Below are positions 7,039-14,701 of a DNA stretch of 50,076 nucleotides, piece by piece. Under the pieces are notes generated by a model. It did not search any database. It had not been told where the DNA came from and was given only the letters and a program-made list of their open reading frames with translations. Origin of the DNA: an uncultured Gammaproteobacteria bacterium (lineage in GTDB: Bacteria; Patescibacteriota; Patescibacteriia; UBA9934; GWF2-40-263); assembly GCA_964402425.1 (NCBI GenBank), contig CAYOCD010000007.1:1081-51156 (forward strand), written 5' to 3'. The position numbers and the translations under genes were made by a program. Each line of letters opens with the position of its first letter. The first letter of the stretch is position 1.

Positions 7039-7116
7039 GTTTTCGAGAAATCGGAAGCACGATCTGATCCGTCGTCTTCATTTGCGCAAGTGTTCATTCA
7101 CATTTTCATTGACCCT

Positions 7117-9696
7117 ATGAAACAAAATCGCACGTTGATTGTTATTTTCTCCCTCTGCGCGCTTGTGTTTGGATTTGTTCCAAATACCATACAGGCAACC
7201 ATGGCACCGGACGTCATCATTTCTGAAGTGATGTGGGCAGGTTCATCTGTATCTGCAGCAGACGAATGGATTGAACTTACAAACATGAGTAACCAACCCG
7301 TCGATGTTTCCGGATGGAGTCTTACGGGTGCATCAAGTGCCCCCATCATTTTTCCCGATAACAGCTTCATGGAACCACATACACCTTTTCTCATTTCAAA
7401 CTATGCGCACACAAACACCAACTCAACACTCAACACACAGTCGCAAATCGTCACGACCATGGTCTCACTCCCAAATGACAAACTCGCCCTTACGCTCACG
7501 GCACCGAATCGAGGCATGGTCGATTCCGCCGGCAACGGAGGAGCTCCTTTCGCAGGAACATCTGGCGGAACTGGAGATGCACTTCATGGACAATACCGAT
7601 CCATGGAACGAAGAGATTTCTTAATGGACGGTACGACAAAAGACGCGTGGACAGATGCAGATTCATCAAATGGATTTAAAGAATCCGCACTCGATCAAGG
7701 AACTCCCGGAAGTTTAAACGCTGATTTGCAATCTCTCCTCATTAACACGTCTACACCAACCACACCAATTGCTGTTGCGCCTGCAACTCCTATCGAACAA
7801 GAACAAATTTGTGAAGATGTCGCGATTGATCTTATCGCAACTGTCGCGCTCGAAGCGGACGTTATCCCTCAAGCAGAGCCAACATCTGACGAAATTCAAA
7901 CACTCACTCCAGCAGAACAACCCGCTTTGAATTCAATGGAACAAAATCCGCCACCACAAGGCACATTACGCATAAGCGAAATTTATTCGCATCCAGCAAC
8001 AGGAGAATCTGAATGGATCGAATTTGAAAACACATCTTCTTATCCAGTGACAACAAACGGATGGAATATGCTTGACGCAAGTGGCGCTTCTACTCTTCTT
8101 CCGGACGTCATTGTAAGTCCAGGAACATATCTCACAATCGAAAATCCAAAAGGTAAACTTAATAACGACAGTGACTCAGTCACCCTTAAAGATGCAAACG
8201 GATCTGTGATCGAATCCGTTCTCTATCATACAGATCTTGGAAATGTGCCGGATGTAAATGAATCTCTTGTTCGAATCAATGAGCAGACATTTGCTCTTAC
8301 GACAACACCAACAAAAAACACATCCAACACATTAACACCTCGCCCGCCAAAAACATCTTCTGTCTCAAATACAACAACGCAAGCAACCACAACTTCTGTT
8401 ACAGAAACGATTGCGACAAACACAGAAATCGTTTCATCGGTCCCTCACGAAACAGAACAACCAACAAAACCAGAAATCGTTACTGAACCTGAACCTTCAA
8501 AACCAATTCTTAAGACTCTTCGCCTTTCAGCATTCTATCCAAACACGGGCGGAAACGATCTAACAGATGAATACATTGAAATCGAAAATACAGGCGATCA
8601 ACCTGTTGTCCTTGATGGATGGAAGATCGTTGATGCGGGTGGAACCAAATTTACTTTTACAAAAGACACTCAAATTGCCGCATATACATTCCATCGTCTC
8701 CTTCGTCCTGAAACAAAAATCAGTCTAAATAATGACGGTGACACTGTTACGCTCATCGCCCCTGACGGATCGATCATTGATACACAAACATATGAACAAG
8801 CAAAAAGTCAGTTCGCATTCGCACGCTCAAACAACGTTTGGTCTTGGACGACAACAATTACGCCGAATGAACCAAGTGTGGTTTCGGAAAACAGCTCTGC
8901 GGTTTCAACAACATCTGAAACAAGAACACCTTCAACTCCAAACACTTCTCCAACCACACAATCCAGTGGGTCCATCTCTCCTTCTCTCGTAACCATCGAA
9001 GACGCAAAACTGCATGCGGATGGAACACGCATGAAAGTTCGAGGAGTCGTAACCGCTCTCCCAAACACGTTCAACTCACAAACCATGTACATCCAAGATG
9101 ACACAGGCGGAATTCAAATTTTCAAAAGTGATTGTCGCTTCCCAACACTCGCTCTTGGTCAATCGATTACCGTCACAGGTGTTCTCTCACACATCAACGG
9201 TGAGGCGCGTCTAAAAGTCATGAATCAAACATCTCTCACTGTTGGCTCAATCACAAATACCGTTTCACCGACTTCTGGAAATGTTTCTTCCATTGGTTCC
9301 CTCATGACCATTGCTGGAACCATTACATCAAAATCCGGAACACGACTTGCTCTTGATGTTGATGGAGAAACATGGAACGTAGATCTCCCAAAAACGAACA
9401 CAGCAACATATAAAAAAGGAGAATCTATCACAGTAAGTGGCATTCTTGCGAACGCAAAAAATGGTCCTGTCCTCAAAGCACGCTCAGAACAGGATGTAAC
9501 ACCGTTACCAAAAGCAGACACCAAACAATCCGTACCAAACATAACCGCCACAGAATCAACAGAACCAAAACAAACTCTCGCGATCGTTTTGATTCTTCTC
9601 TCATCACTCGCGTTCATTGGTCTTAAACTCCGACCACGCTTTTATGCATTCACACAATCCTATGGACGAAAGCCCTCTTTCCCTCCTCGAGCTTAA
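7117..9696 (+). CDS. secreted, membrane-anchored protein with three lamin-tail domains and OB-fold domains
   Basis: Signal peptide; three repeats of the type I(S)E..../E(W/Y)IE..N/GW...D/LNN..D; Thr/Pro/Ser linkers; VRGVVT..YIQDDTGGI OB-fold motif; C-terminal TM helix. Confidence 0.85.
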   Translation: MKQNRTLIVIFSLCALVFGFVPNTIQATMAPDVIISEVMWAGSSVSAADEWIELTNMSNQPVDVSGWSLTGASSAPIIFPDNSFMEPHTPFLISNYAHTNTNSTLNTQSQIVTTMVSLPNDKLALTLTAPNRGMVDSAGNGGAPFAGTSGGTGDALHGQYRSMERRDFLMDGTTKDAWTDADSSNGFKESALDQGTPGSLNADLQSLLINTSTPTTPIAVAPATPIEQEQICEDVAIDLIATVALEADVIPQAEPTSDEIQTLTPAEQPALNSMEQNPPPQGTLRISEIYSHPATGESEWIEFENTSSYPVTTNGWNMLDASGASTLLPDVIVSPGTYLTIENPKGKLNNDSDSVTLKDANGSVIESVLYHTDLGNVPDVNESLVRINEQTFALTTTPTKNTSNTLTPRPPKTSSVSNTTTQATTTSVTETIATNTEIVSSVPHETEQPTKPEIVTEPEPSKPILKTLRLSAFYPNTGGNDLTDEYIEIENTGDQPVVLDGWKIVDAGGTKFTFTKDTQIAAYTFHRLLRPETKISLNNDGDTVTLIAPDGSIIDTQTYEQAKSQFAFARSNNVWSWTTTITPNEPSVVSENSSAVSTTSETRTPSTPNTSPTTQSSGSISPSLVTIEDAKLHADGTRMKVRGVVTALPNTFNSQTMYIQDDTGGIQIFKSDCRFPTLALGQSITVTGVLSHINGEARLKVMNQTSLTVGSITNTVSPTSGNVSSIGSLMTIAGTITSKSGTRLALDVDGETWNVDLPKTNTATYKKGESITVSGILANAKNGPVLKARSEQDVTPLPKADTKQSVPNITATESTEPKQTLAIVLILLSSLAFIGLKLRPRFYAFTQSYGRKPSFPPRA

Positions 9697-10030: not shown

Positions 10031-10414
10031 ATGGATAGAAATACACCCCTCACATTTGGACTCTTCGAAACCTACATGGATAAATTCCAAAGGTATCTTG
10101 AAGATCGATTCGAAAAAATTGGTGACCGATTTGATTCAATGGAACATCATTTGTCAGAGCAAATTGAAAATCTTGCGTTTGCCACAAAAACAGGATTCAA
10201 TGATATGGATAGGCAATTCCATGAAGTTCGTCAGGATGTTTCAGACATCAAACAAGACGTGACAATTTTGAAACAAGACGTTACTGTCATGAAGCAAGAT
10301 ATCTCGGTACTCAAAATCGATATGAAGGATTGCAAGCAATATATCCAAACATCTAGTATCGAATCAAGTTCAAATCGTGTGCGACTCCAAAATCTGGAAG
10401 CACACATTGCATAA
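10031..10414 (+). CDS. coiled-coil protein with heptad repeats
   Basis: Repeated KQDVxx(I/L/M) heptads; terminator follows. Confidence 0.75.
   Translation: MDRNTPLTFGLFETYMDKFQRYLEDRFEKIGDRFDSMEHHLSEQIENLAFATKTGFNDMDRQFHEVRQDVSDIKQDVTILKQDVTVMKQDISVLKIDMKDCKQYIQTSSIESSSNRVRLQNLEAHIA
10232..10315 (+). repeat. degenerate 21-nt tandem repeat x4, in frame
   Basis: caggatgtttcagacatcaaa / caagacgtgacaattttgaaa / caagacgttactgtcatgaag / caagatatctcggtactcaaa. Confidence 0.7.
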
Positions 10415-10449: not shown

Positions 10450-11080
10450 ATTCAAGGGGTGGGAGATTAAAATCAACTTCAAGTTGTTTTCTTCGTGCAA
10501 CAACCGATGCAGAAGTTTTCTTTGCCAAAATATCTCTGCACACAAGCGCAGCCTGACGCATTTCATCAGAGCGTAAAAACGCGTCGTCAATTTTACAACG
10601 TTTTACAAGTTGTACTGCTCCAGAAGAATCTCCTCGCGTCATGGCAGCAAGTGAGACATCTTTCATTTTTCCTTGCATCTCTTCTGTTGCAAGTAACGCG
10701 TCCGGAATCTGAAAACGATCTATGATTCCAAATGCAGAAGATAATCGGTTTGCGGAAATCTCGGCAAGCGCCATATTCATGGCACTCGATTGCGTTTCTG
10801 GATTTGTATTAAATTCAGCCGTCTTCTCAGCACTCCAATCCCCCATCACAAGCGCAACATCTTCTGGATCATGTGCAATTTCTCCTGTCATCATTTTTTG
10901 CACAAACGCCTCTTCCGAGAGATTTAACCGCTTTGCTTTTTCAAGCAAAATTCCTCTTTGCCTACGCTCTTCTGCGTAAATTTCTTCTTCTGGAGACAAT
11001 TCTACTACTTCTACCTTTGTCTCTGGTACTGAAGCTGTCATTGCTTCGTCGGGCCGAAACCCAGATTCAGGATTATTCAT
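10448..11080 (-). CDS. hypothetical alpha-helical protein
   Basis: Start moved to ATG MNNPES because the longer ORF overlaps the tRNA; two similar units (RFQIPDALLATEEMQ / RCKIDDAFLRSDEMR). Confidence 0.7.
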   Translation of the reverse strand: MNNPESGFRPDEAMTASVPETKVEVVELSPEEEIYAEERRQRGILLEKAKRLNLSEEAFVQKMMTGEIAHDPEDVALVMGDWSAEKTAEFNTNPETQSSAMNMALAEISANRLSSAFGIIDRFQIPDALLATEEMQGKMKDVSLAAMTRGDSSGAVQLVKRCKIDDAFLRSDEMRQAALVCRDILAKKTSASVVARRKQLEVDFNLPPLE

Positions 11081-11106
11081 ATGAGAAAAATTATACAGGA
11101 ACAAAC

Positions 11107-11136
11107 AAAAACACCCAACCAAGGTTGAGTGTTTTT
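11107..11136 (-). terminator. terminator after tRNA-Gly
   Basis: aaaaacacccaacc-aa-ggttgagtgttttt. Confidence 0.65.
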
Positions 11137-11137
11137 G

Positions 11138-11212
11138 TGGAGCAGGAAACGGGATTCGAACCCGCGGCCTTCTCCTTGGCAAGGAGAAGCTCTACCCCTG
11201 AGCTATTCCTGC
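11138..11212 (-). tRNA. tRNA-Gly(GCC)
   Basis: gcaggaa/ttcctgc acceptor, tctcc-ttGCCaa-ggaga anticodon arm, GTTCGAATC, encoded CCA. Confidence 0.97.
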
Positions 11213-11337
11213 TAAAATCCTCAAAATTTGCGCCCAGCCAGCATGGCCCTGCGCTCCGCGTTCGAAGGACAAGTCGTCCATCTCACTTGCGGTGCTCGGT
11301 CTACACTGACTGTGCATCAAATTTTGAGAATTTTAGC
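11211..11337 (-). repeat. 127-nt hairpin element with 20-bp terminal inverted repeats abutting the tRNA-Gly 5' end
   Basis: gctaaaatcctcaaaatttg (11211-11230) vs caaattttgagaattttagc (11318-11337), 19/20 plus one G-U on the transcribed strand. Confidence 0.8.
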
Positions 11338-11367
11338 ACGCACACGTGCTAGCTCTTAAGTGGTCGT

Positions 11368-11396
11368 ATTCTAGTAAAAAGTCGCTGATACGTCAA
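11368..11396 (-). promoter_or_regulatory. putative promoter for tRNA-Gly and its hairpin leader
   Basis: TTGACG-17 bp-TAGAAT on the minus strand. Confidence 0.65.
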
Positions 11397-11416
11397 CGGA
11401 TCAAGAAAACCACAAA

Positions 11417-11503
11417 TTATCGATATTGTTCATGAAGTGCAATCGCCGTTGCGGTCGCCACGTTTAGGCTTTCTAATTTTGAGTTGTGTTCGATCATCAC
11501 AGA
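11417..11503 (-). pseudogene. orphan 3' fragment of the TrmH-family methyltransferase gene (diverged direct repeat of 14027-14113)
   Basis: Encodes SVMIEHNSKLESLNVATATAIALHEQYR* vs SVVIDHEVKLESLNVATATAIALHERYR* in the intact gene; 70/87 nt identical by manual alignment. Confidence 0.9.
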
Positions 11504-11524
11504 TATTCTGCCACGCATGATGGA

Positions 11525-11553
11525 TTGACTCAAATCCATTTATTTGTTATGTT
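11525..11553 (+). promoter_or_regulatory. promoter of the E2-E1-Ubl operon
   Basis: TTGACT-17 bp-TATGTT with extended TG; hairpin cttgct-ttcg-agcaag (11559-11574) at the predicted +1. Confidence 0.6.
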
Positions 11554-11610
11554 CCCTCCTTGCTTTCGAGCAAGAATGCCCTTTTACATGACACAAACAG
11601 GAGATGCATC

Positions 11611-13005
11611 ATGACGGACAACCAGAAAAATGTGCAAGTACACGCTTTTGCCGTACCCGCTCTGCTTATGCGCTCACTTGGTCTCAAGATACCATCCGGC
11701 GCCAACATGACACGGATGAGTGCAGAGACCGAAGGCTTCAACATCGCAGTCGACCTGTTCTCATTTCGCTCTGCACGCGCTCGCAACAAAGCCGCAAGTG
11801 CATTTGTTGCAACGGCCAAGCAGACGGGAAAGACTCTCGAAAAGGTTGCGTGTCTCGCAGACAACACGGCCACGGATCTCTATGTCACCATAACGAGTGC
11901 GGAACTTTCTTCGCCAGACGAACAAAATGATCGGAACTTCTATCTTTCCTTTAAAGAATTCATTGATCCGGACTTTGAACATCTCAAGGCCGTCTCACGG
12001 TTCTTCGGACTTCCCATCGTATTGTGCCACGGACACGACATTATTCAACCGCCGTTTCCTCAAACAAAAGATGGGCGCATCTATTTCTTCTACTGTTCAA
12101 GACCTCCAGGTGCGAAACCTGAAATAGACATGCCGGTTGAAGAACTCTTTGGCCTCAAGCTCTGGAAGCATGGTGAGAAACGATTCATTCATCCACAAAC
12201 CCCCGGACGAGGTCGTGTCATTGAGCAGAATGGTGTGTGCGTATTCCAAGTCCTTGGACGCAACTACTACCAGATCTGTTTGGTTCCGTTCGATGAACAC
12301 CATCCGGTGAATCGAGACACCATCTTCGTGAAACTCCTCGAGGTGCTCTATCACGATCTACTCGAACACAACGGAACTGATCTAGAAGTCGCTGAAGCAA
12401 CCAGTGAGGAGCTTGTAACATTTGGCGAAAAACAAGCCGACAAACTTCTCCGCGACGAACGGGATGATCTGAAAAAAACGGAATATGCGATTAGTAAAAA
12501 GGAACAAGAACTCTTTGAACTACTAGCAAAACGTGATCAGTCGATGAGGGTAATCCGTGCAATCTCTGCGGACCCATTCACTTCTGAACTGCATGATCGT
12601 CTTCCAAAAGAATGTTCCGAGATCAAAAACGTTGCTCATGTCTCCTCTGTTCATATTGTCGACGAAGCCATCCAAATCAAAACCACACCAATCGTGATCA
12701 CTCACGAAAATGTGAATTATGATCTTGGACCATTCATTATTCGACTCGATAATAAAGGTAAGCCATCTGTGTGGAGCGACAACCCCAAACACCCGAAAGG
12801 ACATCATCATCCGCACATCGGACGGATTCAACTCGCATGCTTCGGCAATATCACCCTCGCGGTTGCAAAACACATAGCAGCATTCCGCTATGCAGATGCA
12901 ACACGCCTCGTGATTCGATGGCTTCACTCGTACAATCCAGACAACACACTCACACTCATTGAAGAATGGGCCCCTGAAAAGAACTTGGAGGTTCCCCATG
13001 ACTAA
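11611..13005 (+). CDS. multidomain protein: unknown N-terminal region, coiled coil, C-terminal prokaryotic E2/UBC-like domain
   Basis: AGGAG RBS at 11599-11603; heptad region LRDERDDLKKTEYAISKKEQELFELL; HHPHIGRIQLACFGN resembles the E2 HPN...C active site; directly upstream of an E1 and a Ubl. Confidence 0.7.
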   Translation: MTDNQKNVQVHAFAVPALLMRSLGLKIPSGANMTRMSAETEGFNIAVDLFSFRSARARNKAASAFVATAKQTGKTLEKVACLADNTATDLYVTITSAELSSPDEQNDRNFYLSFKEFIDPDFEHLKAVSRFFGLPIVLCHGHDIIQPPFPQTKDGRIYFFYCSRPPGAKPEIDMPVEELFGLKLWKHGEKRFIHPQTPGRGRVIEQNGVCVFQVLGRNYYQICLVPFDEHHPVNRDTIFVKLLEVLYHDLLEHNGTDLEVAEATSEELVTFGEKQADKLLRDERDDLKKTEYAISKKEQELFELLAKRDQSMRVIRAISADPFTSELHDRLPKECSEIKNVAHVSSVHIVDEAIQIKTTPIVITHENVNYDLGPFIIRLDNKGKPSVWSDNPKHPKGHHHPHIGRIQLACFGNITLAVAKHIAAFRYADATRLVIRWLHSYNPDNTLTLIEEWAPEKNLEVPHD

Positions 13006-13654
13006 TCTGAATCTGTCGCAGCAAGACAAGTTGTTCGATGCAGAAACAGCAACGCCCATCACTGTCATTGGCGCAGGGTCTGTTGGGAGTTACGTTGTTC
13101 ACGGTCTTGCAAAAATGGGCGTCACAAACATCACCGTCTTTGATCCGGACTTCGTTGAATCACACAACATCCCCATGTCGCTTTACCGTCTGCGTGATCT
13201 TGCGCGACCAAAAGTTGAGGCGCTCAAGGAAATCATTGAGGACGCAACGGGTGTCGTTATTACCGGTCACAACACAGCTTATAATGGCCAGCCACTCAAA
13301 GGGGTGATCATTGCCTGTGTCGATACCATGGAAGCACGGCAAATGATCTGGAAAGCAATTGAGAACTCAGTGACGATCGATGTGCCCATTCTCTTTGATA
13401 CACGTGTGTCTGCAGAACTCGTTTGGGTCTTTGCGATCAGCCCAGAAGATCCAGATGACAAAGAGCTCTATCAACACCATCTGAACTACTCGACAAAAGA
13501 AACCGCACCGCCTATCTGTGGCCTTCATGGCATCGATTACGTGTCAAAACGTGCAGCCGGAATCGTCTGCATTGGATTGACATCATGGTGGCAACGCGGT
13601 ACAAAGAAGCGCCTCCACAAGGAGTTGGTAGGCGCACTCGAAGTGATCCAGTAA
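12998..13654 (+). CDS. ThiF/MoeB-family E1-like adenylyltransferase
   Basis: GGAGG RBS; VIGAGSVG nucleotide loop, FDPDFVESHN, PKVEAL, ACVDTMEAR, late Cys in PPICG; overlaps the upstream gene end by 8 nt. Confidence 0.92.
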   Translation: MTNLNLSQQDKLFDAETATPITVIGAGSVGSYVVHGLAKMGVTNITVFDPDFVESHNIPMSLYRLRDLARPKVEALKEIIEDATGVVITGHNTAYNGQPLKGVIIACVDTMEARQMIWKAIENSVTIDVPILFDTRVSAELVWVFAISPEDPDDKELYQHHLNYSTKETAPPICGLHGIDYVSKRAAGIVCIGLTSWWQRGTKKRLHKELVGALEVIQ

Positions 13655-13677
13655 GGATCCAACCAAGGAGCAACATC

Positions 13678-13929
13678 ATGCTGAGGATTTCCGTTTCAGT
13701 CGTACCCACGCACGGCAACCCTGTCGATCAAACCGTAGAAGTCGCTCCGAGTGGTGCTTCCGTGCAGGAGATCTGCAAAGCAGCCGGTATCGACACTGAG
13801 AACAAGGATCTGACCGTGAACGGTCAGCCCGCAGGTCTCAGGACTCATGTCGGCCAGAACGATGTGCTCGCAGCAAAAGAACGCGGCAAGCCCGTCGTCA
13901 CCACATCGGAACGTCCGCGCGGCTCCTAA
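13678..13929 (+). CDS. ubiquitin-like (beta-grasp, ThiS/MoaD-like) protein, 83 aa, C-terminus RPRGS
   Basis: AAGGAG RBS; pattern RISVSVV..QTVEV..GASVQEI..LTVNGQ..VGQND typical of beta-grasp Ubls; follows the E1. Confidence 0.75.
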   Translation: MLRISVSVVPTHGNPVDQTVEVAPSGASVQEICKAAGIDTENKDLTVNGQPAGLRTHVGQNDVLAAKERGKPVVTTSERPRGS

Positions 13930-13965
13930 ACCAACAACAACTTCACTGAATCACCTCTTCCCATT

Positions 13966-14025
13966 GTCGCTTCTTCAAGCGACTTTTTTTTAAACAAAAA
14001 ACTCGAGTTCTCCTCGAGTTTTTTT
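13966..14025. terminator. tandem terminators between the Ubl operon and the trmH-like gene
   Basis: gtcgctt..aagcgac followed by T8, then aaaaaactcgag-ttctc-ctcgagttttttt. Confidence 0.75.
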
Positions 14026-14026
14026 C

Positions 14027-14701
14027 TTATCGATACCGTTCATGAAGCGCAATCGCGGTTGCGGTCGCTACGTTCAAGCTCTCGAGTTTTACCTCGTGGT
14101 CGATCACAACAGACGTGCCATCTTTGGTCAGTGTAATTCCTGATCCCTCGTTTCCGATGATGAGCACGATTGGTTGATCTGTTACGAGCACACTTTCTGA
14201 TTTCGCGCCTGGGCGTTTTTCCAGTTTATAAATTGGTCGTGCGAGTTCTTTGAGTGCATCGCGCGCACGAGAAGGATCAAGATCGATCCAAGGAACAAGA
14301 AACAATCCTCCGGCCGACGAACGAATCACTTTTGTGGAACTTGGGTCGGCCGACTCCACCAAAATCATGGTGGCATCAAATCCAAGACAAAGACGCATGA
14401 TCGCACCAACATTTCCTGGATCTTGTACACGATCAAGCATCACAATTGTGTTTGATCGTTTAATGTCGTCGAGCGTCCACACAGGAATCTTTGCAATTCC
14501 AATCACTTCTTGTGGTGTATCTGTTGTTGCAATCTTTCCAAACGATCGCGCGCCCATGTCATTAATGTGCAAAACTTCTTGCACCGCACGCCCCGCCGTC
14601 TCAATCATCTTTTGACCTTCAACCAAACACAGACCCGTTTTATCACGGCCTTTTTTGGTCTCAAGTTGCGTAAGAAGTTTACGTTGGTTGTTTGTGAGCA
14701 T
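14027..14701 (-). CDS. TrmH/SpoU-family RNA 2'-O-methyltransferase
   Basis: VQDPGNVGAIMR, IIGNEGSG and ESLNVA SPOUT motifs. Confidence 0.93.
   Translation of the reverse strand: MLTNNQRKLLTQLETKKGRDKTGLCLVEGQKMIETAGRAVQEVLHINDMGARSFGKIATTDTPQEVIGIAKIPVWTLDDIKRSNTIVMLDRVQDPGNVGAIMRLCLGFDATMILVESADPSSTKVIRSSAGGLFLVPWIDLDPSRARDALKELARPIYKLEKRPGAKSESVLVTDQPIVLIIGNEGSGITLTKDGTSVVIDHEVKLESLNVATATAIALHERYR

Follow-up and report, generated by a model that had tools for sequence, protein, structure and literature searches.

Does a 2.5-kb cassette of three genes encode a complete system for conjugating a ubiquitin-like protein (Ubl), and could its largest product be the conjugating enzyme (E2) of that system? 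The question is raised by a stretch of 50,076 nt (hereafter, the window) of contig CAYOCD010000007.1, assembly GCA_964402425.1, deposited under an uncultured Gammaproteobacteria bacterium and placed by GTDB among the Patescibacteriota. All positions given below are those of the window. The cassette consists of g1 (11611-13005, +), coding for a large protein of 464 aa without a match among curated families, g2 (12998-13654, +), coding for a minimal single-domain activating enzyme (E1) of the ThiF type, 218 aa long, and g3 (13678-13929, +), coding for an 83-aa, probably beta-grasp protein similar to ThiS and SAMP2, which ends in an invariant ERPxGS. An initial annotation of this DNA had proposed an E2-E1-Ubl operon without a JAB peptidase. 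Judging from sequence comparisons, we assign a probability of roughly 0.5 to the reading that the cassette is a self-contained, horizontally acquired, three-component Ubl conjugation module in which g1 would serve as an E2-like relay.

The three genes as one unit

The g1-E1-Ubl cassette is confirmed as one tight three-gene unit closed by a terminator. Indeed, g1 and g2 overlap by 8 nt (ATGACTAA), which suggests that their translation is coupled, and g1, g2 and g3 alike have an AGGAG/GGAGG-type site about 7 nt 5' of the ATG. The initial annotation, which had described three tightly coupled genes with strong ribosome-binding sites, was correct on these points. It had also assigned one promoter and one terminator to the operon, and both sites are present. 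The promoter-like site (11525-11553, +; TTGACT, 17 nt, TG-TATGTT) is sigma-70-like, a consensus match only (9/12), and lies just inside the left edge of the insertion described below; the terminator-like site, also from a consensus scan, is a 7-bp hairpin followed by T8 (13966-13991, +; 13966-13983 in the scan itself). However, such scans are weak alone, and the counts are barely above the shuffled expectation: five promoter-like sites were seen versus 2.6 ± 1.4 in shuffles, and five terminator-like sites versus 3.2 ± 2.2.

The arrangement is not an assembly artefact, because contigs from four lake-water metagenome runs, belonging to four studies, cover the cassette and bridge both its junctions. 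No cassette-skipping contig was found among the lake metagenome contigs, which cannot prove that such an allele is absent. In the lake populations, g1 presents 22 variable sites, 14 synonymous and 8 non-synonymous, a proportion that points to purifying selection, as for a working gene. Furthermore, the unit is beyond chance, because the same genes recur in the same order at other loci. The host genome measures 0.97 Mb at a completeness of 96.7%, in line with the genome of Candidate Phyla Radiation type that had been supposed, and g2 is its sole ThiF protein.

The activating enzyme and the ubiquitin-like protein

The assignment of g2 to the ThiF-type E1s with a late Cys holds. The protein matches Pfam PF00899 with 57.4 bits (cut-off 28.1), and its residues for binding nucleotide and Mg, as well as one Cys, do not vary in 17 sequences (GxGxxG at G25-G30, D49, K72, D109 and R114; Cys174, codon 13517-13519, +, within PPICG). 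Compared with solved E1s, g2 finds Escherichia coli ThiF (E = 1.8e-11), UBA5 (3.3e-11), MccB (2.9e-10), PaaA (1.2e-9), BubCD (2.6e-8) and Cap2 (3.2e-8), with alignments that cover the Rossmann half only. Its best PADLOC matches are the E1 parts of Cap2 ('E1-E2' models; E = 3.4e-13, residues ~11-133) from CBASS, the antiphage system that signals through cyclic oligonucleotides. The protein remains below all the ThiF, MoeB and UbaA equivalog cut-offs (TIGR02356, 54.3 bits and E = 1.1e-14 versus 275.25; MoeB, 22.6 versus 376.55) and contains neither CxxC zinc motifs nor extra domains.

A search for fused forms of g2 returned a single longer protein, P0160, a g2 relative of 456 aa with two tandem ThiF stretches. 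With these, one chain forms an E1 pseudo-dimer, comparable to the pairing of an inactive with an active domain in canonical E1s.

The probable beta-grasp nature of g3, also anticipated by the initial annotation, emerges from its relatives at the level of sequence. The g3 protein alone falls under the Pfam cut-offs; a profile of 14 sequences places SAMP2/PF1061 in the top four positions of the PDB search (E = 0.0099-0.05), and the g3 relatives at two distant loci reach 25.0 bits (L010) and 22.4 bits (genome G249) against the ThiS model PF02597, whose cut-off is 22.5. At the C-terminus, R79, P80, G82 and S83 are invariant in 14/14 sequences, with Gly82 encoded by codon 13921-13923 (+) and Ser83 by codon 13924-13926 (+). 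Among the distant relatives, the end is Gly at L006 and L037 and Gly-Asn at L010; in G249, beside a JAB-like gene, 22 residues follow the Gly. Since the Gly is common to all these ends, it suggests that Gly would be the reactive end of the Ubl and that Ser83 would be cut off. An invariant Ser of a single residue is nevertheless not what would be expected of a propeptide. As for the enzyme that could remove it, the cassette encodes no JAB peptidase, as had been noted, and the Prok-JAB model PF14464 has no match in the host genome or in five other carrier genomes (1.0-1.3 Mb).

The g1 family

Four regions can be distinguished in g1: a variable N-terminal region (residues ~1-120), a conserved middle domain (~125-260) with the motifs PPG, GRG and Q..G.N.Y, a coiled coil (~262-345), and a C-terminal domain (~346-464) carrying HPH-x7-C-x-G. 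The Cys of this motif, proposed as the Ubl-accepting residue, is encoded at 12838-12840 (+), as originally annotated; it is the Cys of HPHIGRIQLACFGN and residue 410 of g1. The coiled-coil call fits, because the sole PDB matches of residues ~228-344, all weak, are vimentin, keratin and myosin (E = 0.37-7). For the middle domain, the PDB search returned nothing (best match CurK, E = 1.1).

Close relatives of g1 number 14 among 5.8 billion proteins searched. In a library of 1.84 billion proteins, the wider family comprises at least 596 representative clusters, defined at 50% identity, at E <= 0.001, including 191 at E <= 1e-10, and the part common to the whole family runs from residue ~125 to 455. 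The conserved residues concentrate in the C-terminal domain: only H400, H402, C410, G412 and Y441 are invariant in the alignment of 93 sequences, and H394 is nearly so. The HPH...C-x-G motif is present in 159/159 family proteins read, the intervening stretch being x7 in 150 and either x6 or x8 in the remaining nine. Cys410 is invariant in the alignments of 14, 93, 30 and 21 sequences, the last including the most distant members; among the distant members H394, H400 and H402 are each lost at least once, the Cys never. The prediction that this Cys would be conserved is thus borne out throughout the family.

No additional domain was found by a Pfam scan of eight longer or displaced family members, and a search for stand-alone C-terminal domains turned up only fragments of the same family. 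All the relatives of g1, g2 and g3 are named 'hypothetical protein' in their sources, or have a blank name. The family gave no tblastn match in cultured phages and plasmids, and two peptide-pattern scans plus one degenerate DNA pattern found nothing in IMG/VR; the 'Uroviricota' labels on Atlas clusters remained unconfirmed. Nothing on the family, nor on an operon of E1, E2 and Ubl genes in Patescibacteria, turned up in the part of the literature that was covered.

The C-terminal domain of g1 as a candidate E2

The ubiquitin-conjugating (UBC) domain consists of a strand meander, the HPN/Cys region and helices, in this order. The C-terminal domain of g1 shows four short strands (V..V..V; G.HV.T.PIV; RY.LG.F.IR; V.VW), then HP.G.PHPHI...G.PC.G, and then helices. 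Two profiles of this domain were searched against 177,635 PDB sequences, among which the UBE2L3 entries include engineered variants. The first, of 30 sequences, placed UBE2L3 first and in 9/10 PDB matches (E ~0.8); the second, built on 21 other sequences including the most distant members, had UBE2L3 as the top 9 of 14 PDB matches (E = 0.27-0.39). The alignments pair the Y-D-x-G-x-F of the family with the beta-3 strand of the E2 and HPH with HPN; the Cys of the family falls opposite a UBE2L3 Cys, which we take to be the catalytic Cys86 of the human protein. The g1 family has its Cys about eight residues past an HPN-type motif, in which the Asn has become His.

Several results weigh against an E2, and against the conjugation module as a whole. 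The similarity to UBE2L3 is not statistically significant (E = 0.27-0.8) and concerns one E2 and its engineered variants. The full g1 protein has no match in Pfam, NCBIfam, PADLOC or PHROGs; searches of six carrier genomes (the host and five others) with the Pfam model UQ_con yield no match at E <= 10, and neither g1 nor any of 93 full-length relatives and 30 C-terminal domains taken in isolation is recognised by a Prok-E2, PADLOC or NCBIfam model. In the ESM Atlas, the model of the C-terminal domain of a homologue (P0012) has neighbours of the same family at TM 0.83-0.86 and no E2 cluster, the next best neighbour being at TM 0.39, on a model that is poor overall (mean pLDDT 0.52). The HxH-x7 spacing of g1 also fits the JAMM peptidase motif. 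Among the partners, two arginines that contact ATP in MoeB/ThiF are unconserved in g2, which has NIPMS opposite the NLQRQ of ThiF. Finally, the Ubl ends in Gly-Ser and not in Gly-Gly in 14/14 complete sequences, with no peptidase at hand, so that the cassette has neither a Gly(-Gly) end nor an enzyme to expose one.

Two further comparisons were uninformative. The domain gave no signal against two Cap2 and two Cap3 sequences (hidden Markov model and hhalign comparisons, with thin profiles), and a predicted complex of g2, g3 and residues 330-464 of g1 scored ipSAE values of 0.02 and 0.00, a verdict neither way.

In sum, of the UBC fold predicted by the initial annotation, the motif, the four-strand pattern and the first place of UBE2L3 for two profiles, in register, stand, whereas the E-values, the E2 models and the Atlas neighbours do not back it. 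We put the chances that this domain is an E2-like module at about even.

Recurrence of the operon and relatives with a JAB-like gene

The g1-E1-Ubl triad occurs in the same order at five of the six genome loci. The sixth (L006) carries a g1-like gene, an extra gene of 350 aa, an E1 and a 70-aa ThiS-like gene. At the metagenome loci, several of which are near-duplicates, g1 and g2 are found in 15/15 and g3 in 14/15, the fifteenth contig ending inside g2. Searches with relatives and across the phylum added four loci (L010, L035, L036 and L037), and in three of them an E1 lies beside the g1-like gene. More specifically, L035 has the full triad, and L037 has a short g1-like gene, an E1 and a 78-aa open reading frame (ORF) ending in ...VNG. 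At L010, where the contig begins 467 nt upstream of the g1-like gene, no E1 is visible and the ThiS-family ORF scoring 25.0 bits is present.

The operon of genome G249 (L036 and L038, contig G249:C4) encodes, in order, a g1-like protein of 508 aa, a JAB-like protein of 280 aa, a ThiF protein of 261 aa and a protein of 203 aa with a ThiS-like domain. This domain ends in ...KPNG and is followed by the 22-aa tail, which contains CHNCG. The 280-aa protein carries E...HxHx7Sx2D and has weak PADLOC matches to JAB (E = 0.018 and 0.033). The extra protein of L006 is homologous to it (BLASTP, E = 0.003), and neither of the two has a Pfam match. These two distant operons, in which the g1-like gene and the E1 flank a JAB-like gene, reproduce the classical four-part layout, with the g1 family in the slot of the E2. 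The layout E2, JAB, E1, Ubl is row 6d in Iyer et al. 2006 (PMC1779556).

Outside the module, the neighbours vary by lineage and are housekeeping genes: ParA/ParB, RelA/SpoT, sigma-70, RuvB, a DHH protein, an RNase H-like protein and a glycosyl hydrolase at other loci, and tRNA-Gly and a SpoU-type gene in the window. No defence island is evident around the carrier loci. Neither the cassette nor the 20 neighbouring proteins scanned include a rhodanese, a cysteine desulfurase, a PP-loop protein or products of thi or moa genes, in agreement with what had been annotated. The occurrence of g1 is sporadic: 0/7 genomes of the same genus, 1/36 genomes of the family (a weak match) and 3/400 other genomes of the phylum.

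Two of the loci (L001 and L003) are syntenic around the cassette with a 'Candidatus Paceibacter' metagenome-assembled genome (L002).

Proposed mechanism and alternative explanations

If g1 is an E2-like relay, the module could work as follows. The minimal E1, g2, would bind the Ubl, g3, and adenylate its C-terminus, either at Gly82 after the loss of Ser83 or at Ser83 itself. The Ubl would probably be carried on the invariant Cys174 of g2 and then move on to the invariant Cys410 of g1, in a C-terminal domain that would be a divergent E2-like module (four-strand meander, HPH-x7-Cys, helices). The coiled coil, the middle domain and the variable N-terminus may dimerise or scaffold the enzyme and pick the target, in which case g1 would be E2 and ubiquitin ligase (E3) combined in a single protein.

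The best surviving alternative, which we consider unlikely, keeps the tagging and removes the E2: tagging would proceed without an E2, as in archaeal SAMP/UbaA, with g2 by itself activating g3 and driving the transfer, and the C-terminal domain of g1 would be a metal hydrolase in place of JAB, with HxH and Cys as zinc ligands, that trims Ser83 so as to free Gly82, removes the tag, or does both. The JAMM signature is E...HxHx7Sx2D, with the Asp acting as a metal ligand; it is found in register in the JAB-like protein of G249, and H400-x-H402-x7-C410-x2-N413 has the same spacing. A further His, H394, is nearly invariant, and SAMP2 proteins are the nearest solved relatives of the g3 profile. Moreover, the cassette has no other peptidase and the six carrier genomes have no PF14464, yet the Ubl has a residue past the Gly. 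What makes the JAMM reading less likely is that the position of the Asp is N, T or S in the g1 family, that no conserved Glu or helix is found upstream, and that the distant operons have a separate JAB-like protein beside the g1-like one. Indeed, the 60 residues preceding HPH form a beta-meander without helices, whereas the MPN fold is alpha/beta. In addition, the Ser of the signature is a Cys, neither g1 profile matches a JAB model or structure at E <= 10, and H394, H400 and H402 each fail in some distant member where the Cys never does.

It is quite improbable, in our view, that the cassette is instead a sulfur carrier system, in which g2 adenylates g3, a persulfide on Cys410 generates the thiocarboxylate, and the middle domain of g1 thiolates a tRNA or a small molecule. 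Maturation by JAB peptidases also occurs among sulfur carriers, CysO and QbsE being examples, and the invariant Cys that g1 and g2 each possess would be apt for persulfide chemistry. The best scores of g2 are against ThiF (the TIGR02356 model and the E. coli protein, with the E-values given above), and relatives of g3 match the ThiS family. However, g2 misses all the ThiF/MoeB equivalog cut-offs widely (54.3 bits versus 275), g3 has Gly-Ser in place of the Gly-Gly of sulfur carriers, and the genes for sulfur transfer and for the thi and moa pathways are missing from the cassette and the 20 neighbours scanned. The sporadic spread (3/400 other genomes of the phylum, 0/7 of the genus), the horizontal insertion, the fast-varying N-terminus and the coiled coil are also unlike a core biosynthetic enzyme.

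As a third explanation, g1 could be cargo or effector: the E1 would attach g3 to g1, or g1 via g3 to something else, as an on/off switch similar to the priming of the nucleotidyltransferase of type II CBASS by Cap2. The best PADLOC matches of g2 are indeed the E1 parts of Cap2 (E = 3.4e-13), the large g1 protein contains a conserved middle domain that is uncharacterised, and strict co-occurrence is equally expected of an enzyme and its substrate. This is very unlikely, considering that the 93-sequence alignment of g1 has no invariant or near-invariant lysine, that its sole invariant residues cluster in the active-site-like HPH...C motif, and that no nucleotidyltransferase or other effector domain was detected in it.

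Lastly, peptide natural-product chemistry of the MccB/PaaA type, with the E1 adenylating the C-terminal Ser of g3 and the side chain reacting on with the help of g1, would agree with MccB (2.9e-10) and PaaA (1.2e-9) being among the best solved relatives of g2 and with the nucleophilic side chain of the invariant last Ser, but is highly improbable: g3 is in all probability a folded 83-aa beta-grasp protein and no short peptide, g2 with its 218 aa is too small for the N-terminal peptide-clamp domain that MccB has, the distant relatives end in Gly or Gly-Asn, and there is no export or immunity gene.

The cassette as a horizontally acquired insertion

The cassette is a horizontally acquired insertion of about 2.6 kb, a point that the initial annotation had missed, together with the Gly-Ser end of the Ubl and the JAB-like gene of distant operons. 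It lies between two copies of an 87-nt direct repeat, 80% identical and spaced 2610 nt. The right copy (14027-14113, -), at the insertion's right edge, is the in-frame 3' end of a SpoU/TrmH-type methyltransferase gene (14027-14701); the left copy (11417-11503, -), at the left edge, is an orphaned duplicate of that gene end. In three genomes of the same genus (G002, G006 and G004), the 3' end of the SpoU gene directly adjoins tRNA-Gly, with no cassette in between. Composition agrees: the GC content of the cassette is 48.8% versus 42.1% in the rest of the window, the highest value of any 2.5-kb window (mean 42.4%, standard deviation 2.1%), and the GC content at third codon positions is 0.48-0.62 versus 0.30-0.42 in the neighbours.

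A patch of 435 nt at 11077-11508, which takes in tRNA-Gly, the spacer and the orphaned 3' end, shares 94% identity with G004 (locus L013), whereas the flanking genes are 70-81% identical. As the patch goes no further than the cassette's left edge, it would be a recombination patch between lineages, and its identity suggests that this recombination was recent. No integrase is present inside the cassette. At 12 other loci, no flanking direct repeats were found (one 15-nt inverted match), so the duplicated gene end is peculiar to this genome and would be the trace of one integration or recombination event and not a property of the module, and a recombinase role for g1 is improbable.

Some other features of the surroundings were observed. 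Just downstream of tRNA-Gly, two 21-nt inverted arms (11210-11230 and 11318-11338) are 95% complementary, and in the contig of one run (X4) the 155 nt at 11213-11367 are swapped for 17 other letters, a small indel polymorphism; the element at 11210-11368 is possibly a miniature mobile element. Upstream of tRNA-Gly, in a region kept in relatives, an ORF of 127 aa (10031-10414, +) encodes a short coiled-coil-like protein, with 21-nt tandem units (10250-10291) that encode KQDV(T/S)xL heptads. An ORF of 868 aa (7090-9696, +) has an N-terminal hydrophobic segment, a C-terminal hydrophobic anchor and three mutually similar segments (...SE..W(I/V)E(L/F).N.S...V...GW...), between which lie linkers rich in Thr, Ser and Pro, with the look of a surface protein. 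The window start cuts a 23S rRNA gene (1-2793, -; Rfam LSU_rRNA_bacteria, model positions 1-2610 of 2925).

Implications

Bacterial Ubl conjugation has been proven recently, with CBASS Cap2, Bil and Bub, and each family studied has brought new chemistry. We advance only tentatively, as a proposal that may well fail, that the g1 family is an unrecognised class of bacterial E2 with built-in scaffold and target regions, part of the smallest complete tagging system, with an irreversible tag and a Ubl that is activated at Ser or matured in some unknown way, and that it acts on phage or host proteins. If so, a 218-aa E1, an 83-aa Ubl and g1 would make up the smallest complete protein-tagging system known, activation at a C-terminal serine would be without precedent among Ubls, and the lack of a deconjugating peptidase would make the tag irreversible. 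In ultra-small episymbiotic bacteria, such a system would act on phage proteins or on those of the host cell.

The architecture would also be distinct, combining a large, putatively E2-like protein with a minimal E1 and a Ubl of one domain, in a clade that is peptidase-less and has a Gly-Ser end. The cassette would add a family outside Pfam, NCBIfam, PADLOC and PHROGs, in genomes of Patescibacteria size, where protein modification and defence are almost uncharted, and the distant JAB-containing operons offer a natural series for the gain or loss of a deconjugase. Since the cassette is short (2.5 kb) and self-contained, with clear catalytic candidates (Cys174, Cys410 and Gly82/Ser83), its mechanism is directly testable.

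Comparison with known systems

The module resembles the bacterial Ubl conjugation operons, but fits no named family. For Bil, Bub and CBASS, we compared it with the features described in two preprints, one by Ye et al. (2024) and the other by Chambers et al. (2023).

As in Bil, the antiphage system BilABCD, Ubl, E2 and E1 would be encoded together, and the distant operon of G249 is likewise laid out in four parts, including a JAB-like gene and a Ubl protein of greater length. The E2 of Bil is thought to choose its targets without an E3 (Ye et al. 2024 preprint); the same source describes BilD as a multidomain E1 (IAD-AAD-CYS), unlike the single 218-aa domain of g2. Bil also has a JAB peptidase, BilC, whereas none is found in the cassette or in the host genome. 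Furthermore, g1 is 464 aa long with only the last ~120 aa E2-like, matches no known E2 model, and is accompanied by a Ubl ending in Gly-Ser.

The type II Bub operons (6E.2/DUF6527) also include Ubl, E2 and E1 and typically have no JAB (Ye et al. 2024 preprint), and g2 finds BubCD among the solved E1s (E = 2.6e-8). On the other hand, their E2 and E1 are fused and a serine protease, DUF6527, accompanies them (same preprint), and DUF6527 matches none of the three proteins g1-g3 at E <= 1. The E1 and E2 of Bub, as described there, lack the catalytic Cys and use oxyesters, in contrast to the invariant Cys410 of g1 and Cys174 of g2.

With type II CBASS, the module shares the Rossmann half of g2, which matches the Cap2 E1 models; Cap2 joins the functions of E2 and E1. 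There, Cap2 is an E2-E1 fusion that conjugates the CD-NTase (a nucleotidyltransferase resembling cGAS and DncV), and Cap3 is a JAB, whereas the cassette has no CD-NTase, no effector and no JAB.

The archaeal pair SAMP/UbaA and the pairs ThiS-ThiF and MoaD-MoeB combine, as g3 and g2 probably do, a small ThiS-type beta-grasp protein with a single-domain ThiF-type E1. SAMP2 is the nearest solved relative of g3, and E. coli ThiF that of g2. However, their small proteins have Gly-Gly ends and nothing comparable to g1 accompanies them, and g2 misses the ThiF/MoeB/UbaA equivalog cut-offs.

The eukaryotic UFM1-UBA5-UFC1 cascade also offers parallels. UBA5, which ranks second among the solved relatives of g2 (E = 3.3e-11), is a minimal E1 that works as a homodimer and has the Cys within the adenylation domain; UFM1 is made with a short extension past the Gly (Gly-Ser-Cys) that must be trimmed. 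On the other hand, the PDB search with g3 finds no UFM1, UFC1 is not known to have an HPN-type motif, and evidence of common descent appears confined to the E1 superfamily. The cassette is probably a novel variant among the bacterial Ubl conjugation systems.

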